Part shown: positions 9,329 to 59,474 of the stretch, one piece after another
Layout of the letters: every line of letters begins with the position of its first letter
How positions within the stretch are numbered: the stretch's first letter is position 1
The notes under the pieces: generated by a model
Told to the model about the DNA's origin: nothing
The model's database searches: none
The model's input: the letters and a program-made list of their open reading frames with translations, nothing else
Origin: a virus
DNA length: 64,000 bases
Direction: 5' to 3' (one strand)
IMG/VR virus record: IMGVR_UViG_3300012006_000002
Span: 1 to 64,000 of that record
Made by a program: the position numbers and the translations under genes

Positions 9329-12300
9329 ATGCCAGCATCTTCTACGTCAGTAAGCATTAGTGCGGCAAACTCGGCTATTACTGCGCTATCTGTTGATACG
9401 GGAACAGTAAGTCTTGCTGGCGGACTTTCCGTGTCGAGTGGCGTCAATATTCTCGATACCGGACTTGTGCTGTCCGCCATGACGACACCGGCAGCACCGG
9501 GCGCTTCCAAGAACAGAATCTACGCCAAATCTGATGGAAATCTTTATTTCCAATCCGGAACATCGGCAACAGAGAAACGTATTGCTGATACCGTAGGACT
9601 TTCCGCATCAGCATTTACGGACACCACGGTAGCAACAAACATTACGTCTGGCACTATTAGCGCGGCTCGACTTCCCGGAGTCATTCCCACTCTTACGGTC
9701 ACAAATCTTATTGCTAATCTATCTCAAGAATATTCAAGTTTTACCAAGACTGGCACACAGACCCTCAGAATACGATTAGGCACAGCATTGACTACCGAGA
9801 CGGGTGCAAATGCAGGGTCGGAATTCTACATCAGCACGTATGCTGATGATGGATCGACACTTATTGCTACGCCATTTCGCATCAAAAGAGGCGGACAAGT
9901 CTTGGTGGGAACGTGGACTTCCGATCTTAGTGCTGGCGGATACGCATTGAATATGCGTACTACCGCAAGCAATGATGGATTATTTCTTACTGATTCAACT
10001 CGATGGATGTTAACTCTTCCCGGAACAACAGGCGCGGGGTCATATAATAATCTCGTTTCCGCCAATGACAACGCGATTATCTTTAGCGCCGGATCGGTAG
10101 GAACCGGAAATTTCGTATTGGCTCCGTGGTTCAACGGAACGGGCGGCATGCGAATGAACAACTCGGGAGAAGTTGGATTTTCCGGAAATCCTGTTTCTGG
10201 ATACCAACTTGACGTTTCCGGAGTTGCTGGCGTAACTGGAAAGTTGTCCATTGCCCCCTCCGGAACAGGAAAAGATAACGCCTATAACGGGGCTTTAGTC
10301 ATTACCAAACCAACTGCTTCTGGTCAATATATCAATTTGATTCGATCTGGCAATACCGTATGGTCCATTGGGTATGCATATAACAATAATAATTTTGCCA
10401 TTGGCGGCGGAAACGCTACGGATTCCAGTTTTACCGCTCCGGGATTTCAAATAACTACCGGAAATCTTTTCAGCATGGCAGCGGGAACTCCCGTGGGAAG
10501 CACCCTGAGCGTTGGGGGAAATGGAATTACTCTTACTGCCACGTATGGAGCCTTATTGAGTAACAGTTATTATGATACGTCTTGGAAATTTGCTGGAAAC
10601 GGATATGCGTGGGGATTTGGTAATAATTTCAGCGGTGTTACAAATGGTGTTACTCTTGCAATTAGTAGCGTCAATAATTCCAGTGGTGCTACTGCTGCGT
10701 TAACATGGAATCCATATTTCAATTTTCATGCGGTAGGTGTTCTTACCGTTGGCACAACAACTAATTATGGAGTTATTACGGGTTATGGGCAATCCGGAAG
10801 CACCACCAGTGGATGGTTTGGGAATGGCAATGCGGGCAGTTATGCCAACATTACCGTTTCGTCAAATGACAGATCTATGGATTTTGGTATTCGAAGCTCC
10901 ACCTATTCCGGCGGAGAAGCCGCGTATATTTATCTTAGTTCCACAACAACGCCGTTTTCAATTTATACTTCCGCATCGGAACAGATTCGAATTCCCGCTA
11001 CCGGAGGATTGCAAATAAATAACAGCAAGGGTTTGACATTTCTTACTCATGCATCAGAAACCGCAGCTCGGGCAAATTTCACCGACATAATCTATGCACT
11101 TTATACAGGAAGTGATGCATTTCGTATTCAGGTTGGGAATCGCTCACTTGGATGGAATGGAACAACTTCTACTGCAATGTCTGCAGATAATGGATATCTT
11201 GAGATTGCAACAGGCGACAGCGCAACTGAGCCAATTTATGTTAGTCAATACACGTATGTTGCTCCGTATACTACAGGAACAGCGTCGCAATCCGGAAACA
11301 CCATTACCGGATCTGGTACAGGATGGACAGTATCGAACGCTCCGGTCGGATCAGAGTTTGTTTTTACCGGAAGCATTCCCCCTGTTCGGGGAGGAACAAT
11401 CAAAGCCGTTGTCAGCACCACTCAGTTGACTGTAGATGTCAATCAGACAGTGGCAAGCTCAACATACACTATTGGACCAAATAGTGGATTCTTTGGAGCA
11501 TTAAATCGAAGAGCGTCTCTTCTTGACGAGAGTGGATATACGTCTTTTCCATTGCGTCTTGGAATTGGTACTACTCCAACTATTCCTCTGGATATTGTTA
11601 CCAACGACAATGTCACGTATACCAATGTCATGACCGGACTTGCGTCTGCGTTGTCTGTTGGCAATACGGCGTATTTTGGAATAGGAAAAGCAAATAGTAC
11701 AAACAACTCTGTCGCGTGGGGCTTTTATAATGCGGGATCTGGAAGCACGAGCAATCGTTCCGATTTGACATTCTGGGGAGGGTCACCGCTACTGTCCGTT
11801 CTTGCTTCCGGAAATGTGGGAATTGGAATAACCGCCCCTGCTGCAAAACTCGATGTTGCTGGGACATTGAGACTCAACGGCACAACCGCAGGGACAAACT
11901 GGACGCAACTTCAATCTGCGGCGACACCGACAACAAACGTCACCTACACTCTTCCGTCTAGCGCTCCTGCCTCAACGGGATATTTTCTTACTAGCACCAC
12001 GGGCGGAGCAATGTCTTGGGGAAACTCATTAACTGATATTACTTCCACAAATGGAAATATTACCACACTTACTGCTACCACTCTCAATGCAACAACGGTA
12101 AATATTTCCGGAAATCTTACTGTTTCAGGAACATTTACCACCTATAATTCGGTGGTAACAACGATAGAAAATCCTACTATTGATATTGGTGGTGGACTGG
12201 GAGGCATTGCTCCCTCAATTGATGATGGCTATGATCGCGGCATTACATTCCAGTGGCACAATGGAACGTCAGCCAAAAAAGGTTTTTTTGGATTTGACAG

Positions 12301-49021: not shown

Positions 49022-49618
49022 ATGGAATATTCGAAACAATCTCAAGTAGAAAAAATACGAAAAGTACACAGAAATCCGGAACAATTACGTAGAATATTGA
49101 AAATTCCTACTCCGACAACTCTTGAAAAAAGTCAGCAATTGAGGTATGAAAAATGCTCCATACCTCAATGCATTTCTTACGGAACGTCAGATCATCCACT
49201 AGACCTACATCACATTATTCCTCGATCTCAATCAATTGCTCATAGGGATGAATTTACAAATCATCTTTATATTTGCGGCGATTTTTTCCCGAAAAATCAT
49301 CATAAGGCAATGCACGGCGAGGCAACTCCGGGGCTGGAAGATCTTCAGAAACTGGGATTTTTCGGATCGTGGGAGGCCAACGCAGACCCAGCACCGACAA
49401 GAAGCCTTGACGAGACTGGTCCGATCCTGCTACAGTTCTCACAGGTGGACTCGATAGCTCGGTCCCTGATTTCAACAAGTGTTGAATATCTTCTTGATTA
49501 CGCTAAGAAGCGTGGTATAATTTCTCCGGATATAACGTTATCGGATAATAACGTTATTTTTCTTAAAAACTATTCCGATACTAACGGAATATCCGGAGTA
49601 GCTAGCTACCGGAAGTAA
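49022..49618 (+). CDS. HNH endonuclease-like protein
   Basis: CSIPQC...LDLHHIIPRSQ...NHLYIC...HHKAMH. Confidence 0.75.
   Translation: MEYSKQSQVEKIRKVHRNPEQLRRILKIPTPTTLEKSQQLRYEKCSIPQCISYGTSDHPLDLHHIIPRSQSIAHRDEFTNHLYICGDFFPKNHHKAMHGEATPGLEDLQKLGFFGSWEANADPAPTRSLDETGPILLQFSQVDSIARSLISTSVEYLLDYAKKRGIISPDITLSDNNVIFLKNYSDTNGISGVASYRK
49494..49521 (+). promoter_or_regulatory. sigma70-type promoter inside the HNH gene
   Basis: TTGATT-16 bp-TATAAT with TG extension; spacer holds the palindrome ACGCT-AAGA-AGCGT. Confidence 0.5.
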
Positions 49619-50231: not shown

Positions 50232-50747
50232 ATGCCTTCATTCAAAGAACTCTACGAGCCTGTTGCAAGATTGGCTGCAAGAGAGAACAACATCAACGAG
50301 AATATTTTTTGTGGTTTGATTACCATAGAAAGTAAATGGAACCCAAATGCAGTCAACCCGGACTCTGGTGCTGCAGGTATTGCTCAGATCATGAGGATCT
50401 GGCATCCCGGAGTGAATGTTTTCAATCCTATTGAATCCTTGTACTATTCAGCAAAATTAATACGATCATATTTGAATGTATTCAATGGTGATTACGACTG
50501 GGCATTGGCGGCGTATCACATGGGAATCTCTACGGTAACATCCATGCATACTACATCGGGACAGTTACCATTTTACGAGTTACGTAATTACGTCTATCCT
50601 GTGAATCAATTAGCAATGGAATGCGTCATTCATCAGCCAGTATCAACGCTTATCCCCTCAGTGATGCCTAGCGTTACTCCTGAGGCGTCCTTGCTTGATC
50701 CCCTGTATCTTCTTCTTCCATTGTTGTTTGCCTTGCTTAAACAATAG
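50232..50747 (+). CDS. Lytic transglycosylase (SLT) with C-terminal hydrophobic tail
   Basis: ESKWNPNAV...GAAGIAQIM...ALAAYHMG; ends LLDPLYLLLPLLFALLKQ; GGAG SD. Confidence 0.85.
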   Translation: MPSFKELYEPVARLAARENNINENIFCGLITIESKWNPNAVNPDSGAAGIAQIMRIWHPGVNVFNPIESLYYSAKLIRSYLNVFNGDYDWALAAYHMGISTVTSMHTTSGQLPFYELRNYVYPVNQLAMECVIHQPVSTLIPSVMPSVTPEASLLDPLYLLLPLLFALLKQ

Positions 50748-51065: not shown

Positions 51066-51152
51066 GCTGGGATGATGAAATCGGTAGACATACCTGACTT
51101 AAAATCAGGAGGCGGACATTCCGTCGTGCGGGTTCGAGTCCCGCTCCCAGCA
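51066..51152 (+). tRNA. trnL: tRNA-Leu (anticodon UAA)
   Basis: Acceptor GCTGGGA/TCCCAGC, discriminator A; anticodon arm CCTGA-CT-TAA-AA-TCAGG; long variable arm; T arm GCGGG-TTCGAGT-CCCGC; CCA incomplete (CCT). Confidence 0.97.
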
Positions 51153-51154
51153 CC

Positions 51155-51739: not shown

Positions 51740-51768
51740 TTGACGAAACCGTCTGCATTGTGTATACT
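51740..51768 (+). promoter_or_regulatory. sigma70 promoter with GACGAAACCGTC operator
   Basis: TTGACG-17 bp-TATACT; operator 51742-51753 overlaps -35. Confidence 0.8.
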
Positions 51769-51819
51769 TGATGCAGGTGGCCCGCCCAAGCCGGAGTCGC
51801 CAGAAAGAAGGAAGGCACG

Positions 51820-52371
51820 ATGCCCTGCCACGACATTCTTATTGAAACAGCAATCAAGCAAGTGACCAATGAACAGATCAGCGAGACTGTTCCGATGTGG
51901 GACATGATGGCATCTGTCCTTACCATTGATGTTCCCAATGATTTTGGCGCTCGTCCAAATTACGAAAACAATTTGGTTCTTTATCGAATGGCCGGAGGGT
52001 CACTAGATGCAGAACTTGTGCAGCGATACCAGCAGTCCTACGTTGCGCGACAGATCTTTGCCGCACTGGAAGCAGACGGCTACGAAATGCACGCCTACGT
52101 CTCTCCTGATCATGAGGGAACTTGGGTCATTAACGCCAGAGATGTGACTCGAAACGCAACCATCGGCGTTGTTGTCTACAAGACTCTTGAATTTGAGATT
52201 GATTTTCTCGATGTACTTCATGATGATTCTGTCTGGCTCGTGGGCGGTGAATTTGGTCGAGTCATAGAGAAAGTCCAAGCAATGGGACTTGCGACAGAAG
52301 TTGTTAAAATGGACATTGACAACAACGCAAAAGCAATATATTCACAAGAATCAAACGCTTTGTATTCATAA
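51820..52371 (+). CDS. DUF1257(Ycf35)/DUF2997-like protein, putative AAA+ ATPase partner
   Basis: MPCH..IETAI start, LVQRYQQSYVARQIFAALEADGY helix, Y.QE-type ending; near a Ycf46-like ATPase; family call from memory. Confidence 0.5.
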   Translation: MPCHDILIETAIKQVTNEQISETVPMWDMMASVLTIDVPNDFGARPNYENNLVLYRMAGGSLDAELVQRYQQSYVARQIFAALEADGYEMHAYVSPDHEGTWVINARDVTRNATIGVVVYKTLEFEIDFLDVLHDDSVWLVGGEFGRVIEKVQAMGLATEVVKMDIDNNAKAIYSQESNALYS

Positions 52372-52389
52372 AATAGAAGGTAAAATAAA

Positions 52390-53325
52390 ATGGACGCCAA
52401 ACACAAAGAACGCGCACTCATTGTTTCGGATATTCACAGTAACGCACATGCATTGCGCGCAGTTATTGATGATGCAACCAAGGCATTAAAGGGAAGGAAA
52501 AATTTTCACGCATCAGGGCTTCCGTTTCACGAAATCTGGTGCGTTGGCGATCTTGTTGGCTACGGACCTGAGCCGAACGAAGTCATTGACATGCTGCGCA
52601 AATTTCAAAAAGAAGGCATTGCTGTTCACGCGGTAAAGGGAAACCACGATACTGCTGTCGCTGGAATAACAAATGCAAGAGATCACATGCACACGGCAGC
52701 AGCTCAGTGTGCAGAACATAATGCCTCAATCATAACTCCAGAAAATCAGCGTTGGCTTGCAAGTCTTCCAGATACTGCTCAAGTTGGCCCAAAGATCGAA
52801 AATCCTGCTGGATTAACTGGAAGCCGAAGCATGTTCACGCTTGCTCACGGAACTCCAGACAGTCCGCAGGGAACGTATGCAGATTCATATGAATCCGCGC
52901 TTTACGGATTAGATCATCTTGATGCGGATCATGAACACACTCCGTATACTCCTCATGTCATTGTTGGTCATACGCATGATCCGAGGGCTTTTCAGTTTGA
53001 TCCGGATCATATCGTCGAACACCCTGCCGAAGATGGATCATTTCCATTCCTTGGTCCTGCAGCAAATGATTATTCCTTGTTGCACAATGACAAATTGCAC
53101 ATCTTGAATAATCAAGGAAACGGCCGATTCGTGATCAATCCCGGCAGTGTCGGGCAGCCTCGCGATCACGACCCGCGTGCATCCTACGGAATTGCTGAAG
53201 TAACTGCTTCGGGTATTCGCATCATGCACCGCAGGACTCCTTACGATGTTCCGTCCGTTCAAAAGAAGATGAAAGCCGAGGGTCTGCCCGCCTCGATGTA
53301 CCAACGTCTTTCCCTTGGGCGCTAA
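52390..53325 (+). CDS. Metallophosphoesterase (YfcE-like phosphodiesterase)
   Basis: SDIHSN, GDLVGYGP, GNHD, HGTP, GHTH, NPGSVGQPRD.DPRASY. Confidence 0.92.
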   Translation: MDAKHKERALIVSDIHSNAHALRAVIDDATKALKGRKNFHASGLPFHEIWCVGDLVGYGPEPNEVIDMLRKFQKEGIAVHAVKGNHDTAVAGITNARDHMHTAAAQCAEHNASIITPENQRWLASLPDTAQVGPKIENPAGLTGSRSMFTLAHGTPDSPQGTYADSYESALYGLDHLDADHEHTPYTPHVIVGHTHDPRAFQFDPDHIVEHPAEDGSFPFLGPAANDYSLLHNDKLHILNNQGNGRFVINPGSVGQPRDHDPRASYGIAEVTASGIRIMHRRTPYDVPSVQKKMKAEGLPASMYQRLSLGR

Positions 53326-53338
53326 ATATCTTTTCCCC

Positions 53339-53367
53339 TTGACATAGACGAACCCGTCGTATACACT
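53339..53367 (+). promoter_or_regulatory. sigma70 promoter with GACGAACCCGTC operator
   Basis: TTGACA-17 bp-TACACT; operator 53347-53358 in spacer. Confidence 0.85.
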
Positions 53368-53417
53368 TGTTCTAGGCGGGAATCCCGCCCAAGGACTCTC
53401 CGAAAGGAACTACTCTT

Positions 53418-55346
53418 ATGGCCAGTACCGAAATTGCTCCCAGCCCCGAGTGGGCAAAGACCGTCGTCAAGAAGTACCTCACTGGAGAAGGCCATGCCTA
53501 CCTTCTCTATGGGCCGGGAATTCATGACATCAGCGCCTTGTCCTACGACCTGCACGCCAATCTGTATCACACGTTTGGCAACAAGGCGACGCCCAACAAG
53601 CCCGTGCAACTTGACTTCGATATCGTTGTTCGTTACGACCGCGTTGCTGGGTTCCGGTTCATTGGAACGGAAAAGAAGCGCAGCGATGATCGTGAGCGAT
53701 TCAAGGCAATCGTCGAGAAGATTCGTGCCAACGCTCCGGCTGGCGCAGCAAACGCAGCAGGAATTCGCGGAGGAATGTCTAGCGGAATTTCTTCCGCTCC
53801 AAAGTCGGATATCTTGGAACAATCCAAGAATCCTGCACTCGCCATTCCGCTATTGACTGACGCGCTTTCTCAAAGCGAAGTGCGACTGTGCGTTATTCTG
53901 GATGAGTTCCAGAGTATTTGTCCTCGTGGCGATTGGGACAAGATTGGCGAAATGTTCACCAATTGCATTATTGCCGCAAGATCATGGGGTCTGGACTTTG
54001 ACAACATAGGTGGTCATGGTCGTAAATGGACCAAGGGTGGGGCTGGGCACATTATTATCGGTATAACCGATGATAAGTCGGAAATCAATGCCGCCCTCTC
54101 AAAGGGACGTAGCATTTCTGGCTGGATTCCGATCAATGTCGGCTTTCCTTCTCCAGTAGAGCGCGAATACTATATCTCTGAGAGGGTCATGACCCCGGCA
54201 TACCTTGAACAGGTCGAGATTGACTTTGGCGACAATGTTGCCGAAGAAGACCGGGCAAAGTGGCTGGCAAGTGCAACTGGCGGACTGAGTATTCGCGCTA
54301 TCGAAGACATGCGCCTTGCTGGCGACCGTCACCGCATGCTTACTCGTGACATGGTTCAGAAGATTATCAATGAAACCATTTCCGAACAGTTTGCTGGTCA
54401 GGGCGGATCCGAGTACCTGACGGTCATCAATCCCACAAAGGGTCTTCGCGACTATGGGTTTCCGGCGTATCTGATTGAATACATGGAATGGTTTATCAGG
54501 CAATTCCGTGCTGGCAAACTCAGGAACGCAAACATCCTTGAGGCTGGCCCTCCCGGCACCGGAAAGAGCATCCTTGCGTATGCCTTGGCCTACGAACTTG
54601 GATACAAGTGCGTTCACTGGAGTCCTGCCCTCACTCAGAGCAAGTGGGTAGGGGATTCGGAGAAGCAGACGCAGCAGGTGTTGGACTGGGTTGAAGCCAA
54701 CCTTCCTTGCATGGTTTTCATTGACGAAATCGACGTTGCGCTTACCTCGCGCGATGGCGGCGTTGGTGATAGCTCCGGGGTTGGATCAAAGATGCTTAGC
54801 ATCTTGATGCCTTGGCTGGAGCGGGACGAAATCAAGGGCAAACTTCTTCTTGTTGGCGCAACAAACCGTGCTGATAACATTGATGCAGCAATGAGGCGTC
54901 GCCTGCAGACAGTTCTTCCTATTCTTCCTCCAATGACACCAGAAGATCGTCGAGCGGTATTGGAGAATGTTCTTATCCGCGAGCAGGGCATAGATCGCAA
55001 TTTGATCGAAATCCCAGAAGAAGTTGTTGCAGACGGTGCTACAAAGTGGTACACACAAGCCAACTTGTCTATTCTTGCTGAGAAGGCAGCGTCTATTGCC
55101 TCACGGAAAGGCGATGAGTTTTCATCACGAGTCGGACATTTTCTCCAACTGGCTTCCGCTTCATACCGTGTTGATACAACGCGCACGGAAGCACTCTCCT
55201 ATCTTGCTGCTTCTCAGTCATCTGATACCGACCTTCTTCCTCCGGGCTTTCAAGTGAAGCAGGAGCGGGAAGTCAAGAAAATCTTGCGAGAGATTGAGGC
55301 AGATGATGACGATGAGGTCGGGCCTAGCGAACGGGGAGTTCGCTAG
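53418..55346 (+). CDS. Double-domain AAA+ ATPase (Ycf46/CDC48-like, first domain degenerate)
   Basis: D2 has GPPGTGKS, VFIDEID, GATNRADNIDAAMRRR; D1 retains only YLLYGPGIHD and CVILDEF. Confidence 0.92.
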   Translation: MASTEIAPSPEWAKTVVKKYLTGEGHAYLLYGPGIHDISALSYDLHANLYHTFGNKATPNKPVQLDFDIVVRYDRVAGFRFIGTEKKRSDDRERFKAIVEKIRANAPAGAANAAGIRGGMSSGISSAPKSDILEQSKNPALAIPLLTDALSQSEVRLCVILDEFQSICPRGDWDKIGEMFTNCIIAARSWGLDFDNIGGHGRKWTKGGAGHIIIGITDDKSEINAALSKGRSISGWIPINVGFPSPVEREYYISERVMTPAYLEQVEIDFGDNVAEEDRAKWLASATGGLSIRAIEDMRLAGDRHRMLTRDMVQKIINETISEQFAGQGGSEYLTVINPTKGLRDYGFPAYLIEYMEWFIRQFRAGKLRNANILEAGPPGTGKSILAYALAYELGYKCVHWSPALTQSKWVGDSEKQTQQVLDWVEANLPCMVFIDEIDVALTSRDGGVGDSSGVGSKMLSILMPWLERDEIKGKLLLVGATNRADNIDAAMRRRLQTVLPILPPMTPEDRRAVLENVLIREQGIDRNLIEIPEEVVADGATKWYTQANLSILAEKAASIASRKGDEFSSRVGHFLQLASASYRVDTTRTEALSYLAASQSSDTDLLPPGFQVKQEREVKKILREIEADDDDEVGPSERGVR

Positions 55347-55349
55347 GCC
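55321..55349. repeat. Perfect 12-bp inverted repeat spanning the AAA stop codon
   Basis: GGCCTAGCGAAC-GGGGA-GTTCGCTAGGCC, no U tract. Confidence 0.85.
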
Positions 55350-55372
55350 ACACTGCCCCGAAAGGAATTATC

Positions 55373-55696
55373 ATGAGTACTTTTAAAAACAACACGTCGC
55401 TGCCAATATTCAGAGATCCAAAATTTCAAGATATGTTAGTCAAACAATTTGAATACTCTATGAAATCAAATATAGAAGAATTATTCAATGCAATTGAAGA
55501 AATGATGAATCTAGATCATATGAAAAATCCAAAGTATACATCTGATGTGTATGACAAAATAGCAAAAGCAACACATAATCTCAGATTCCGATTGATTCAT
55601 TCACTTCCTGATTATCAAATTGACGACACTGTCGACCAAATTGTGTCGCAGATCATGGATAGTCTTTCCAATATGCCGACCGAATACCCCCACTGA
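55373..55696 (+). CDS. AT-rich hypothetical protein (moron-like)
   Basis: AAGGA SD; visibly more AT-rich than its neighbours. Confidence 0.7.
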   Translation: MSTFKNNTSLPIFRDPKFQDMLVKQFEYSMKSNIEELFNAIEEMMNLDHMKNPKYTSDVYDKIAKATHNLRFRLIHSLPDYQIDDTVDQIVSQIMDSLSNMPTEYPH

Positions 55697-55697
55697 C

Positions 55698-55726
55698 TTG
55701 ACACCGACGAATCCGTCTGATAGTAT
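55698..55726 (+). promoter_or_regulatory. sigma70 promoter with GACGAATCCGTC operator
   Basis: TTGACA-17 bp-TAGTAT, TG extension; operator 55706-55717. Confidence 0.85.
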
Positions 55727-55761
55727 TATCTTGTGGGCACTGCCCCGGAACTGGAGAAAAA

Positions 55762-57291
55762 ATGACCGTTACTCTTACGAACCCGCAAACCCTAGAAGAA
55801 CAGTCCGAATCGCTACGCCAGCAACTTGGGCTGGAGGTGGCTCCCAAAATCATCAATCCTGATTCAGTCACAAAGATTTTTGAATCCGGCGTCTTGGCAA
55901 ATGTTCGCGTGACCGCTGAGCGATTCAACTTTTCCATCAAGTTGTCTGACTTGGGAATTGTTCCTACTCGCGAAAACCGAAAGGAAAAGTTGGTTAGCGC
56001 CATCGACTCGGTTCTCAGAAATTCTCAGCGCGCATCTTTGCTGCCCAAGGATGAAATGTTCCATTACGTGGATGGCAAGAAAGTTGCCATTCCCATGCCA
56101 GAGATTACTGACCGGGCTGTAAGGTTCTTGTTTCCCACTCGCTACGACGAGGATAAGGGACCGGCTTCTGCTTCTGAAGCATCATGGGATGCCATTCCAT
56201 TGTATGGAATGACTTTCATTCCGCTCGCTTCTTGGGTTCGCTGGAGCAAGCAGTATGAAGAGGCGAAGACAGAGCATCTTCGTGCGGCACAACTCATCGT
56301 TGATAACTATGATCGACTGAGGAGTGCATCAGTCAATCATTACGTGCAGATTGCCCTTGATGTGTACAACCGGCTTCAGAAGACTGCGCCTCAGCAATTG
56401 ACGCGCACTATCCAGTTGAATGACCTTACAGCGCGACGCTTTGGCGGAACCGCTGGCGAGTCAATGGAGGTGCAGATCACACCTGTCCAGTGGGTGCGTC
56501 GCTGGAAGCGTGTTGTTCTTCGCGCTTGGCCCACCAAGCAAGATATCATCAATAAGTATCGAGTAGATGCCAAGTTTTTTTGGGCACCTCTGCCGTCCAA
56601 GGTTGCCGAAGACCGCATTCTTGCTGATGAAAAGATTCGGAATCGAAACTCTGAAAATACTGCAATCAGTCAGATCAGGGATGTTGTGAATAGCACCATG
56701 TCTTCTCAGGCGCATGAACTTACAGTGTCTTATGTCAGAACTATCGTAGAGCGCACCGAGATGGTTTTTCTTGGATTTCTCAACTTTGTTCAGAATGACA
56801 ATCGTGCAATTTCTCCCAGACAGTTAAATGCAGTACTCCGTGTCGTAGATATGATCAGCCAGATGACAGCGGATGTGTCTGGACTTGATGGAATCAAGCG
56901 TCAGGCGGAATTGATCGAGGCATATGTCGAGCAAAGCAAGTCGCTATTAGCTTCATCTTCGAACAAGAAGGGTCGCAAGTCTACTGCTGAGGAAATTTCC
57001 AAGGATCTTCCGAGCATTATTGCACAAGCAGTTCAGATCGTTCGCGAAGAGGCCGAGTCACTTATCGGATTCGAAGCGCGCCGGACAGTGTACTCAGCCG
57101 AAGACCCGATGCAAATTCTTGCCTCCATAAACTCTTCCCAGTCAGGTCAGTCTCCAGTTGTTCGTCGCGCGTCAGTCAGCACAGAGGATGACGCTGTCGA
57201 ATTTATCGAATGGGAAGATACTGACGCCCACGAGCCGCTGCCTCTCGATGAGCAGGAAGATGAACTTGCCGCAGTCCGCCGCGTGCGATAA
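55762..57291 (+). CDS. Helical protein, DUF3150-like
   Basis: GVLANVRV...LSDLG...SLLPK...GMTFIP...IVDNYD...WPTKQDIINKY pattern; GGAG SD; family call from memory. Confidence 0.55.
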   Translation: MTVTLTNPQTLEEQSESLRQQLGLEVAPKIINPDSVTKIFESGVLANVRVTAERFNFSIKLSDLGIVPTRENRKEKLVSAIDSVLRNSQRASLLPKDEMFHYVDGKKVAIPMPEITDRAVRFLFPTRYDEDKGPASASEASWDAIPLYGMTFIPLASWVRWSKQYEEAKTEHLRAAQLIVDNYDRLRSASVNHYVQIALDVYNRLQKTAPQQLTRTIQLNDLTARRFGGTAGESMEVQITPVQWVRRWKRVVLRAWPTKQDIINKYRVDAKFFWAPLPSKVAEDRILADEKIRNRNSENTAISQIRDVVNSTMSSQAHELTVSYVRTIVERTEMVFLGFLNFVQNDNRAISPRQLNAVLRVVDMISQMTADVSGLDGIKRQAELIEAYVEQSKSLLASSSNKKGRKSTAEEISKDLPSIIAQAVQIVREEAESLIGFEARRTVYSAEDPMQILASINSSQSGQSPVVRRASVSTEDDAVEFIEWEDTDAHEPLPLDEQEDELAAVRRVR

Positions 57292-57299
57292 TCTTTCCC

Positions 57300-57321
57300 G
57301 CGGGGCTGGATCCAGCCCCGC
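57300..57321. repeat. Perfect 22-bp palindrome before the primase gene
   Basis: GCGGGGCTGGATCCAGCCCCGC. Confidence 0.9.
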
Positions 57322-57335
57322 ACTCACCGAGGGGG

Positions 57336-59474
57336 ATGCCTGTGACAAGTACGCTAGAGGACACTCTCTCCATCCTTTTTTCATATGTCGATAAGGGATG
57401 GAATATTTTCCCAATAGAAAAGAATGGTAAACGCCCAGTTGTTGTAAGCCGGGGGAAGGATAACTCTGGAGAAGAGTTTGAGGTTAGATTGAAGTGGAAT
57501 ACATTTCAATACAACAAGAATACCAAGGATCAGATAAAGACTTGGTATTCTCAGTTTCCGGAGTGCAACTGGGCAGTTGTGTGCGGCAAGATATCAAATC
57601 TTGTTGTAATGGATGTGGATGGGGATCTGGGAATTGCTTCTCTTCAAAAATTTCATCCGGAAATACAATCAACAAAGACATGGATGCAAGCAAGCCCACA
57701 TGGGTTTCACATGTTTTTTCTACACCCCGGCAGTGACGTAAAAAGTTTCCCTATTCTGCCAAAAGTTGACATCAAAGCAGATGGTGGATACATTGTTATC
57801 CATCCATCAAAAATTGATGAAGAGCAGTACAGAATCCTGATTGAGGCTCCCCTTGCAACATGTCCGGGGTGGATCGTCCGTGGTGAATCCTCACGAGACG
57901 ACAATGAATCTGAGGCTGCCCCCGTTTCTGCCGAAAAGACCAGACCCCAATGGGTTTCTGATCTTATTGCTCATGGCTCTCCTTCTGGAACACGAAATCC
58001 AGACGCTGCTCGCCTTGTAGGATATTTCTGGAATAAGGGAATAGGCAAGGACATTATCGAGACCATCATGGCTCCATGGGCGGAGCGTTGTCAGCCTCCC
58101 TTTTCAATGAGAGAACTTCAGACAGTGATTCGAAGCATTTGTTCATATCAGCAAATGGCAAAGAATCACGGAGTGGTTGACCCTCCTACGATGAGTTCTA
58201 GTGGTACTGGCATGAAATACACTTGGCATACGTTCAAGGTGGATATTGTCATATCAAAAGTTCTGGATACTGATCGCTTCGGACTTGTTGGGGAGTGGGA
58301 GGTGCAGACGAATGGCATTCCCTCCCTGCCAAAATATCTCTATGGCCCCGTGGCAGTTACAATGAAGGACGGACAGAAATTGTCCGCGCTGGTCACGGAA
58401 CTTGAGAAGCGGATGTTTGGACCTCCGTGGCGTCAGATGGTCAGTGACGTAGCGCGGCTAAGCATCGGTCAGTTCACTCGGGGGCAGCCATGGAGCCTTC
58501 TGCGAGATGCGCCCCGCGCACAGCAGATGGGATACGCACACAGGCCTCTCCTGTTGGCCAAGGAACCCACCCTTTGGTTCAGCGCGGGTGGTGGCATGAA
58601 AAGCTACCTAGCCCTCGCTCTGGGCATACAAATGGAAACGGGCATTGATCTTGGGCTGGGAACTCCGCTGGTCCGGAATCATGTCGCGTACCTTGACTGG
58701 GAATGGGATATTGGCCAACATGCGCGACGATTGGATACAATAATATCTCCGTCAGACCAAGAGCGACTTGGCGTCAATATTGTCTACCGGAATTGTGGAG
58801 GCAGACCGCTTCGCAATCAGATTGACGAACTAAAGCGACTTATCGCACAAGAAGGAGTGACGTATGTCATTATTGACTCTGCTAGTCCTGCTTGTGGTCG
58901 TGCTAGCGATAATGACGAGATTGTGGCGTTCTTTCAGAGCATCTCACAACTCAACGTGGGGTCATTAATTCTCGCTCACATCACGAAGAATGATAGAAAT
59001 TCTCAGGATGATGTCCAAACTGCTTTCGGTGGAGTGCAGTGGGAGAATCAGGCTCGATCAACGTGGCATATCCGCAAGGTTCAGGAAGAGGGAAGCAACA
59101 TATCCGACCTCGTCATGACACACCAGAAAATAAATGCTGGTGCAATGAATCCCCCGATTGCGATACGATTTCAATTTCCTTATGAAGACGAGCCGGGTGG
59201 ACTGGTAAGTTTCCAGATGATGAATCCCTCTGATCTTTCTCCTGAATCACTGAAAGACAGCGGGATAAGTTTCAGGGATAAGATTAAGTTTGTCCTGAAA
59301 AACAAATCCATGTCGGTAGAAGACATTGCCGAGGCCATGAGCATGAGTCCATCACCGGGCTTGGTCAATACCCTTAAGGCCATGGAGCAGAACACCCTGA
59401 CACGAATCGTGAGGAATGTCGGTGGCCAGCAGGTGGAGTGCTGGGGGCTTCGGTTTGGACGAACAGCAGATTGA
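57336..59474 (+). CDS. Bifunctional primase-polymerase, PriCT and RepA/AAA_25-like helicase fusion
   Basis: GWNIFPI, NWAVVCG..LVVMDVD, GFHMFF, DIKADGGYIVIHPS; GTRN..AARLVGYF; YLDWE, VIIDS, LILAH; start may be GTG 57342. Confidence 0.9.
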   Translation: MPVTSTLEDTLSILFSYVDKGWNIFPIEKNGKRPVVVSRGKDNSGEEFEVRLKWNTFQYNKNTKDQIKTWYSQFPECNWAVVCGKISNLVVMDVDGDLGIASLQKFHPEIQSTKTWMQASPHGFHMFFLHPGSDVKSFPILPKVDIKADGGYIVIHPSKIDEEQYRILIEAPLATCPGWIVRGESSRDDNESEAAPVSAEKTRPQWVSDLIAHGSPSGTRNPDAARLVGYFWNKGIGKDIIETIMAPWAERCQPPFSMRELQTVIRSICSYQQMAKNHGVVDPPTMSSSGTGMKYTWHTFKVDIVISKVLDTDRFGLVGEWEVQTNGIPSLPKYLYGPVAVTMKDGQKLSALVTELEKRMFGPPWRQMVSDVARLSIGQFTRGQPWSLLRDAPRAQQMGYAHRPLLLAKEPTLWFSAGGGMKSYLALALGIQMETGIDLGLGTPLVRNHVAYLDWEWDIGQHARRLDTIISPSDQERLGVNIVYRNCGGRPLRNQIDELKRLIAQEGVTYVIIDSASPACGRASDNDEIVAFFQSISQLNVGSLILAHITKNDRNSQDDVQTAFGGVQWENQARSTWHIRKVQEEGSNISDLVMTHQKINAGAMNPPIAIRFQFPYEDEPGGLVSFQMMNPSDLSPESLKDSGISFRDKIKFVLKNKSMSVEDIAEAMSMSPSPGLVNTLKAMEQNTLTRIVRNVGGQQVECWGLRFGRTAD

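Follow-up and report, generated by a model that had tools for sequence, protein, structure and literature searches.

The window analyzed here comprises the first 64 kb of the IMG/VR virus record IMGVR_UViG_3300012006_000002, which is 102,766 bp long and is estimated to be 59% complete; the nearest near-complete relative of this source phage has 184 kb. Five plus-strand genes (Table 1) are situated between the genes for a transglycosylase (50232-50747) and a PrimPol-helicase (57336-59474). Three of them, encoding the AAA+ ATPase AAA642 and the proteins A183 and C509, are the trio examined in this report. The other two, a metallophosphoesterase gene and the AT-rich open reading frame (ORF) s107, are interleaved with the trio, as a preliminary description of this DNA had reported. 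The metallophosphoesterase gene starts 18 nt past the A183 stop codon and no promoter was found in that gap. The same description had considered the three trio genes to be GC-richer. This is true of AAA642 and C509, with GC contents of 0.52 and 0.50 against 0.42 for the window, but it does not extend to A183, whose value of 0.455 is lower than that of the metallophosphoesterase insert (0.486).

Table 1. Position of the trio genes, the interleaved genes and the putative regulatory elements in the window.
Feature	Position	Strand	Description
Promoter P1, TTGACG-17-TATACT	51740..51768	+	putative; 10/12; precedes A183
Dyad in P1, GACGAAACCGTC	51742-51753	+	overlaps with the -35 hexamer; its end is 9 nt 5' of the -10 hexamer
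A183	51820..52371	+	ORF; 183 aa; no named family
Metallophosphoesterase, calcineurin-like	52390..53325	+	311 aa; Pfam Metallophos, E 3e-12
Promoter P2, TTGACA-17-TACACT	53339..53367	+	putative; 10/12; precedes AAA642
Dyad in P2, GACGAACCCGTC	53347-53358	+	fills the spacer
AAA642	53418..55346	+	ORF; 642 aa; PF00004 match
s107, AT-rich ORF	55373..55696	+	ORF; 107 aa; GC 0.34; sole match Imm30, under the Pfam cut-off
Promoter P3, TTGACA-17-TAGTAT, TG-extended	55698..55726	+	putative; 10/12; precedes C509
Dyad in P3, GACGAATCCGTC	55706-55717	+	fills the spacer
C509	55762..57291	+	ORF; 509 aa
GC-rich 9-bp hairpin	57300..57321	+	no T-run after it; between C509 and the PrimPol-helicase gene

Each of the three non-adjacent genes of the trio has its own sigma-70-like promoter and the three promoters share an operator, in agreement with the preliminary description. 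The window has exactly three copies of this operator, the 12-mer dyad GACGAANCCGTC, one per promoter, when 0.01 copies were expected by shuffling and none of 100 shuffled sequences reached three. Its geometry is unequal, with the dyad placed in the spacer of P2 and P3 and over the -35 region of P1. The promoter scan is by itself weak evidence because it returned 34 sigma-70-like sites in the window against 28 expected. Variants of the dyad (RACG-N4-CGTY) were also located in a genomic array of 13 units (95-102.7 kb), likewise 9 nt from a TAnACT or TAGTAT -10 hexamer, and in the related contig L013 the sequence GACGGAACCGTC precedes the C509 gene with the geometry of P3. Because of this recurrence, the dyad can be taken as a real regulatory site that serves a wider gene set and is not private to the trio. 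The genes linked to it are presumably transcribed by the host RNA polymerase.

The array itself (locus L018, genome 95000-102766, outside the window) is made of about 13 mini-cassettes, in each of which a GC hairpin and its T-run are accompanied by the conserved box GCCCGCAATCYGTCGCGGGTG, a dyad promoter and a small ORF. In these promoters the dyad RACGATGCCGTY is separated by 9 nt from the -10 hexamer that follows it, TACACT or TAGTAT, and they belong to the same operator family as those of the trio. Separately, a direct repeat, CACTGCCCCGRAA, was observed at window positions 55351-55362 and 55738-55750. Its two copies bracket s107 and P3, one in the s107 leader and the other in the C509 leader, and it looks like the scar of an insertion or of a leader duplication.

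Separate searches with A183, AAA642 and C509 recovered the same seven related IMG/VR contigs, with ATPase identities of 60-72%, and the gene order A183, AAA, C509, PrimPol was kept in all seven. The proposal of a conserved and co-regulated AAA+ trio was thus upheld, and the genes do co-occur outside the source phage, within one syntenic phage clade. In the relatives a promoter is placed 5' of A183 and a hairpin 3' of C509; the hairpin was identified at the matching position in L002, L004, L005 and L009. The junctions inside the trio are variable. Between A183 and the AAA gene there is the metallophosphoesterase in the source phage and a 108-aa ORF in L013. Between the AAA gene and C509 there is s107 in the source phage, 2.7 kb of genes in L009 and nothing in L005; L002 and L004 have there an ORF of about 110 aa that carries a WDWDIDPY motif. 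The gene of about 110 aa, at L002:9877-10233 and L004 ~9930-10266, has the W/YDWDIDPY motif in common between both contigs and matches no Pfam family, and none of the genes inserted in the relatives belongs to an informative family. No counterparts of the metallophosphoesterase or of s107 were found in the related loci searched. Since both genes were found in the source phage only and the junctions vary in the relatives, they are best regarded as lineage-specific inserts, that is, cargo that splits a core operon. P2 and P3 would keep the downstream core genes expressed in spite of the inserts. A P3-like promoter appears to be older than the insertion, because it is present in the insert-free lineage L013.

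The C-terminal part of AAA642 was expected from the preliminary description to be an intact ATPase domain, and so it is, judging from its sequence: a classical AAA domain with every catalytic and substrate-threading element. Residues 372-565 match PF00004 with an E value of 4e-28 (98.9 bits, cut-off 21.2), and the domain also matches Cdc48 D2 (E 7e-39), CdvC, PAN and FtsH. A GPPGTGKS Walker A, a MVFIDEID Walker B, a SKWVGDSE aromatic pore loop, an ATNR sensor-1 and Vps4-like AAMRRRLQ fingers were identified, all of them invariant across five relatives. In the classical clade, hexameric protein translocases are recognised by this set of Walker, pore-loop and finger motifs. The N-terminal portion of about 345 aa had been described as a degenerate first AAA domain. 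The motifs LLYGPGIHDIS, VILDEFQ and IIIGITDD do appear there in AAA order and the Walker lysine is missing, so this portion would not bind ATP in the usual way. This motif order suggests a dead AAA domain in a type II, two-ring ATPase. Profile comparisons, however, gave the description no statistical backing: among the P-loop families of PDB and Pfam none was matched by the N-half profile, and the hhalign comparison of the first half (D1) with the second (D2), although collinear, was not significant (E 0.44). Part of this portion is shared with other ATPases. Residues 209-326 are conserved in the N-region of the Paenibacillus pSC2 plasmid AAA (E 3.7e-5, probability 71%), and residues 206-345 show 27% identity with the N-region of the Rhizobium phage RHph_Y1_11 AAA (E 0.003). 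Residues 209-326 can therefore be regarded as a genuine conserved region common to the single-AAA ATPases of phages and plasmids.

The two partners of the ATPase are not assigned to any family. For A183, 32 metagenomic homologues are known and their alignment has many invariant columns, yet the protein showed no family in Pfam (E <= 10), PHROGs, NCBIfam or PADLOC. C509 has 33 homologues, again with many invariant columns, and gave the same result in Pfam, PHROGs, NCBIfam and PADLOC. Neither protein had a tblastn match in phages at E <= 1. By the pattern of their alignments, both appear to be conserved proteins under selection.

A profile of the A183 family searched against 1.84 billion representatives retrieved four small clusters only, three of them distant, and a Pfam scan of these three gave no match. 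The distant homologues (P0069, P0070 and P0072) are missing from IMG/VR and reside on contigs of 1-2.4 kb. Matches of the profile to giant proteins (YadA stalk, InlB repeats) were dismissed as repeat artefacts. The invariant residues of A183 include C3, H4 and D5 at the N-terminus and the block FEIDFLD..HDDSVWL.GGEFGR, and the Cys-His pair together with the GGEFGR loop suggests a metal or active site. The pair lies at the extreme N-terminus (window 51822-51836, residues 2-5) and is invariant even at 25% identity; the loop, D..H-D-D..W..GGEFGR, is invariant at residues 128-147. The AlphaFold model, with a predicted local distance difference test score (pLDDT) of 85, shows a two-layer alpha+beta sandwich. 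VIA-align, whose stated background is Z 7-8, placed it closest to the METTL16 VCR (Z 9.5, root-mean-square deviation 2.7, 106 residues) and to the Chk1 KA1 domain (Z 8.5), little above that background, and Foldseek found no PDB structure at E <= 1e-3. The fold of A183 is tentatively predicted to be a KA1/TBP-like alpha+beta sandwich. Two other possibilities were considered and dropped: 1) a tautomerase-like N-terminal proline, as Pro2 is not conserved in the distant relatives and no MIF/4-OT protein appeared among the fold matches, and 2) an N-terminal nucleophile (Ntn)-type cysteine.

C509 was modeled with a pLDDT of 73 as a mixed alpha/beta N-region followed by long helices and a disordered acidic tail; in the model, residues 314-438 form a four-helix bundle. 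A wide VIA search returned generic four-helix bundles only, and no PDB structure was matched by Foldseek at E <= 1e-3. Against BFVD, Foldseek retrieved six proteins from phages, 268-346 aa long (E 8e-5 to 4e-4, probability 1.0, TM-scores 0.17-0.36), one of which is annotated as a DUF3150 domain-containing protein. In the ESM Atlas, C509 gave scores of 0.93-0.94 and 18 of the 30 matches fell in the DUF3150-bearing set. The DUF3150-like character proposed for C509 in the preliminary description is therefore weakly supported by the predicted fold and the language model, but the Pfam hidden Markov model (HMM) never matches it.

AAA642 ends in an acidic run followed by PSERGVR. This tail is kept in five relatives, with PSxRxVR in most relatives. 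C509 also has an acidic, disordered tail and ends in VRRVR. Among the real genes of the 102.8-kb record, an R-x-[VIL]-R end after an acidic run is found in AAA642 and C509 only, and A183 has no Arg tail. Arg-rich ends were observed as well in genes near other AAA genes. In Pseudomonas phage SM1 (L019), gp27 and gp28 end in ...VRTPRRR and ...RRRGRTPR, and in Arthrobacter pZXY24 (L029) a 250-aa neighbour of the AAA gene ends in ...RRTERVIR. These SM1 and pZXY24 ends resemble the RxVR termini of AAA642 and C509. A Nostoc DUF1257 protein ends in ...QQVRR.

We consider, with a probability of roughly one half, that the trio is one conserved operon of an uncultured phage clade and that it encodes a classical-clade AAA+ protein unfoldase with two clade-specific partners. 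Classical AAA+ unfoldases with private partners are common in metagenomic phages. The likeliest mechanism, on which we would place about even odds, is that of a hexameric unfoldase acting with its two private partners on a protein early in infection. Host RNA polymerase would transcribe the operon early, with a dyad-binding regulator in control. The AAA642 hexamer would thread a protein substrate, with its N-region and the KA1-like A183 providing a substrate or adaptor platform, and C509 could be an adaptor, a scaffold or a client. The R-x-V-R ends that follow the acidic runs of AAA642 and C509 may be docking tails for a common site. The substrate would be a host or phage protein of early infection, and a role of the trio in host takeover or counter-defence is speculation.

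Several points weigh against this interpretation. The co-occurrence is weak evidence of functional linkage, because every case belongs to a single phage clade, whose synteny covers the entire region. The C509 tail is poorly conserved among the relatives. Finally, the term early derives from promoter resemblance alone, in a window where the scan returned 34 sites against 28 expected.

Among the characterized ATPases, the motor resembles those of the Cdc48/p97/VAT and Vps4/CdvC systems. The C-terminal domain matches Cdc48 D2 and CdvC, the fingers have the RRR of Vps4 and, as in p97, there are an acidic C-terminal tail and a non-catalytic N-region where cofactors could bind. In contrast to those systems, the first 345 aa of AAA642 correspond to none of the known N-domains or D1 domains, A183 and C509 fall outside the known cofactor families and the module is phage-encoded. 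AAA642 also has no HbYX tail and a protease partner was not identified. The AAA domain matches as well the IetA/IteA anti-phage ATPase of PADLOC and NCBIfam (E 1e-15 and 3e-13). This likeness, however, is confined to the generic AAA domain (49.5 bits against a cut-off of 510 bits), the gene is carried by a phage and not by a defence island, and an IetS-like protease partner did not turn up in the genes scanned.

A possible but doubtful alternative is that the trio represents a diverged and compacted module of phages and plasmids, composed of DUF1257, DUF2997, a Ycf46-like AAA and a DUF3150-like protein, in which A183 would be a DUF1257+DUF2997 fusion drifted past recognition and the trio would act in the manner of that uncharacterised machine. 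The fusion had been proposed in the preliminary description. The DUF2997-ycf35 cluster of cyanobacteria is listed in PMC4284462. In four cyanobacterial plasmids, DUF1257 (Ycf35) and DUF2997 genes lie directly 5' of an AAA gene with an N-region of about 290 aa and one AAA domain. A183 is seated alike in the relatives, as a small gene directly 5' of an AAA in which a long N-region is combined with a single live AAA domain. By eye, there are also a shared M-x-(C/S)-H...T N-terminus and a beta-hairpin followed by a G..G...lG helix, in a fitting order of secondary structure. The match of C509 to a DUF3150-annotated phage protein by fold and to DUF3150-bearing clusters by language model favours the same view, as do the Arg-rich C-termini of components, seen in partners of the Nostoc, Pseudomonas phage SM1 and Arthrobacter modules.

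The profile comparisons nevertheless argue against such a module. The HMMs of DUF1257 (PF06868, cut-off 22.2 bits), DUF2997 (PF11211, cut-off 24.1 bits) and DUF3150 (PF11348, cut-off 24.9 bits) matched nothing at E <= 10 in A183 or C509, respectively, nor in six-frame translations of the genome and five relatives, so that no DUF1257 or DUF2997 gene is detectable near AAA642. As positive controls we used the genuine DUF1257/DUF2997/AAA modules of the four cyanobacterial plasmids, and Pfam recognised them with E values of 2e-14 and 9e-12 (54 bits for the DUF1257 protein of Nostoc pn3, 45 bits for the DUF2997 control). In hhalign, the A183-family alignments A1 and A3 reached a probability of only 0.3-0.9% against the four cyanobacterial DUF1257 proteins, with a template alignment too shallow to discount a very remote homology, 0.1-0.3% against DUF2997 and less than 1% against a fused DUF1257+DUF2997 alignment. 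The A183 profile recovered no DUF1257 or DUF2997 protein among the 1.84 billion representatives, and the ESM Atlas lead to DUF2997 (0.76) was within the noise range. Full-length AAA642 did align with the four DUF1257/DUF2997-linked AAAs (99.4%, E 2e-21), but this alignment is carried by the generic AAA domain, since the N-halves alone gave an E value of 0.28. In addition, A183 has no Arg tail, the trio has no WGR gene and its gene order is different, C509 being downstream. The identification of A183 as a DUF1257+DUF2997 fusion is thus unsupported rather than disproved.

Less probable still is that the trio is a stripped-down, fast-evolved orphan AAA+ machine of the Ycf46/Ycf35 type belonging to mobile elements. 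In such a machine the motor and its client or adaptor would dock on a common site through the R-x-V-R tail that both carry after an acidic run; the KA1-like A183 or the dead N-region could offer this site.

We regard as improbable that the trio is a replication accessory that loads, activates or recycles the PrimPol-helicase, or that remodels the replisome of the host to suit the DnaE polymerase encoded by the phage. The operon is always directly 5' of the PrimPol-helicase gene, with a RuvC-like protein and a DnaE-type polymerase encoded nearby, and the Nostoc modules adjoin dnaN and dnaX. A comparable arrangement exists in cultured phages. In Rhizobium phage RHph_Y1_11, Rhodobacter phage RcZahn and SM1, an AAA gene follows the lysis or transglycosylase genes and heads the next block, which in the first two contains DnaB, RNase H and primase genes. 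Those ATPases, however, have 396-574 aa against the 642 aa of AAA642, and the RHph_Y1_11 alignment starts at about residue 206, leaving the first 200 aa or so without counterpart. Moreover, hhalign found no similarity between the A183 and C509 profiles and any AAA neighbour in RHph_Y1_11, RcZahn, SM1, Paenibacillus pSC2 or Arthrobacter pZXY24, and the DUF3150 HMM matched nothing in SM1, RHph_Y1_11 or RcZahn. The motor, with its KWVG pore loop, falls in the classical protein-unfolding clade and not in the initiator or loader clade, a conserved hairpin parts the operon from the PrimPol gene, and adjacency inside one syntenic clade proves little. Least likely of all, the trio would form no common machine and would be three unrelated early genes, adjacent in one phage lineage under a general early-promoter operator: the synteny runs past the trio, from the gene at 49022 to those at 61-63 kb, and the dyad is also present in the far cassette array and is not trio-specific, but both junctions take varied inserts and yet the presence and order of the trio are constant, the unit delimited in the relatives by one promoter and one hairpin consists of just these three genes, and AAA642 and C509 have an unusual tail in common.

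The surroundings of the trio show some other features. Downstream of the PrimPol-helicase gene there are genes for a RuvC-like protein, the large terminase and the portal, and a minus-strand gene for a DnaE-type polymerase. The last three are at genome positions 63541-65208, 65258-67159 and 67761-71198 (locus L016); the polymerase, encoded on the opposite strand, is a DnaE-type Pol III alpha of full length. Replication and packaging genes are therefore interleaved. Just 5' of the module, one tRNA-Leu (anticodon UAA) is located at window positions 51066-51154 and was the only match of an Rfam scan. Between 51523 and 51706 of the window there is a free-standing unit that has a near-consensus promoter, TTGACA-17-TATAGT (11/12), followed by about 150 nt without an ORF, and that closes with a hairpin and a T-run (CCCCTTCGG...CCGAAGGGG ATTTTGCTTT). 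This unit is a candidate small RNA and has no match in Rfam. A megablast comparison of the region with the GenBank phages gave no match. Searches of 185,579 prokaryotic genomes using the alignments of AAA and C509 recovered no relative either and thus gave no hint of a prophage or of a host.

A search of the literature on DUF1257/DUF2997, DUF3150 and Ycf46 in connection with phages yielded nothing functional and no paper on such a set of genes. The trio offers a compact example of one motor with two partners, in which natural insertions at both junctions tell the core genes from the cargo. The split operon also illustrates clearly how accessory genes can reside within an operon whose core genes are each served by a separate promoter. 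The shared operator and the shared C-terminal tail provide experimental handles on regulation and assembly, respectively. If the link with Ycf46 and Ycf35 were true, the trio could help to explain long-orphaned genes of cyanobacteria and plastids and, if it were indeed a stripped-down machine of that type, its three proteins would be the simplest available system for the function of that machine.

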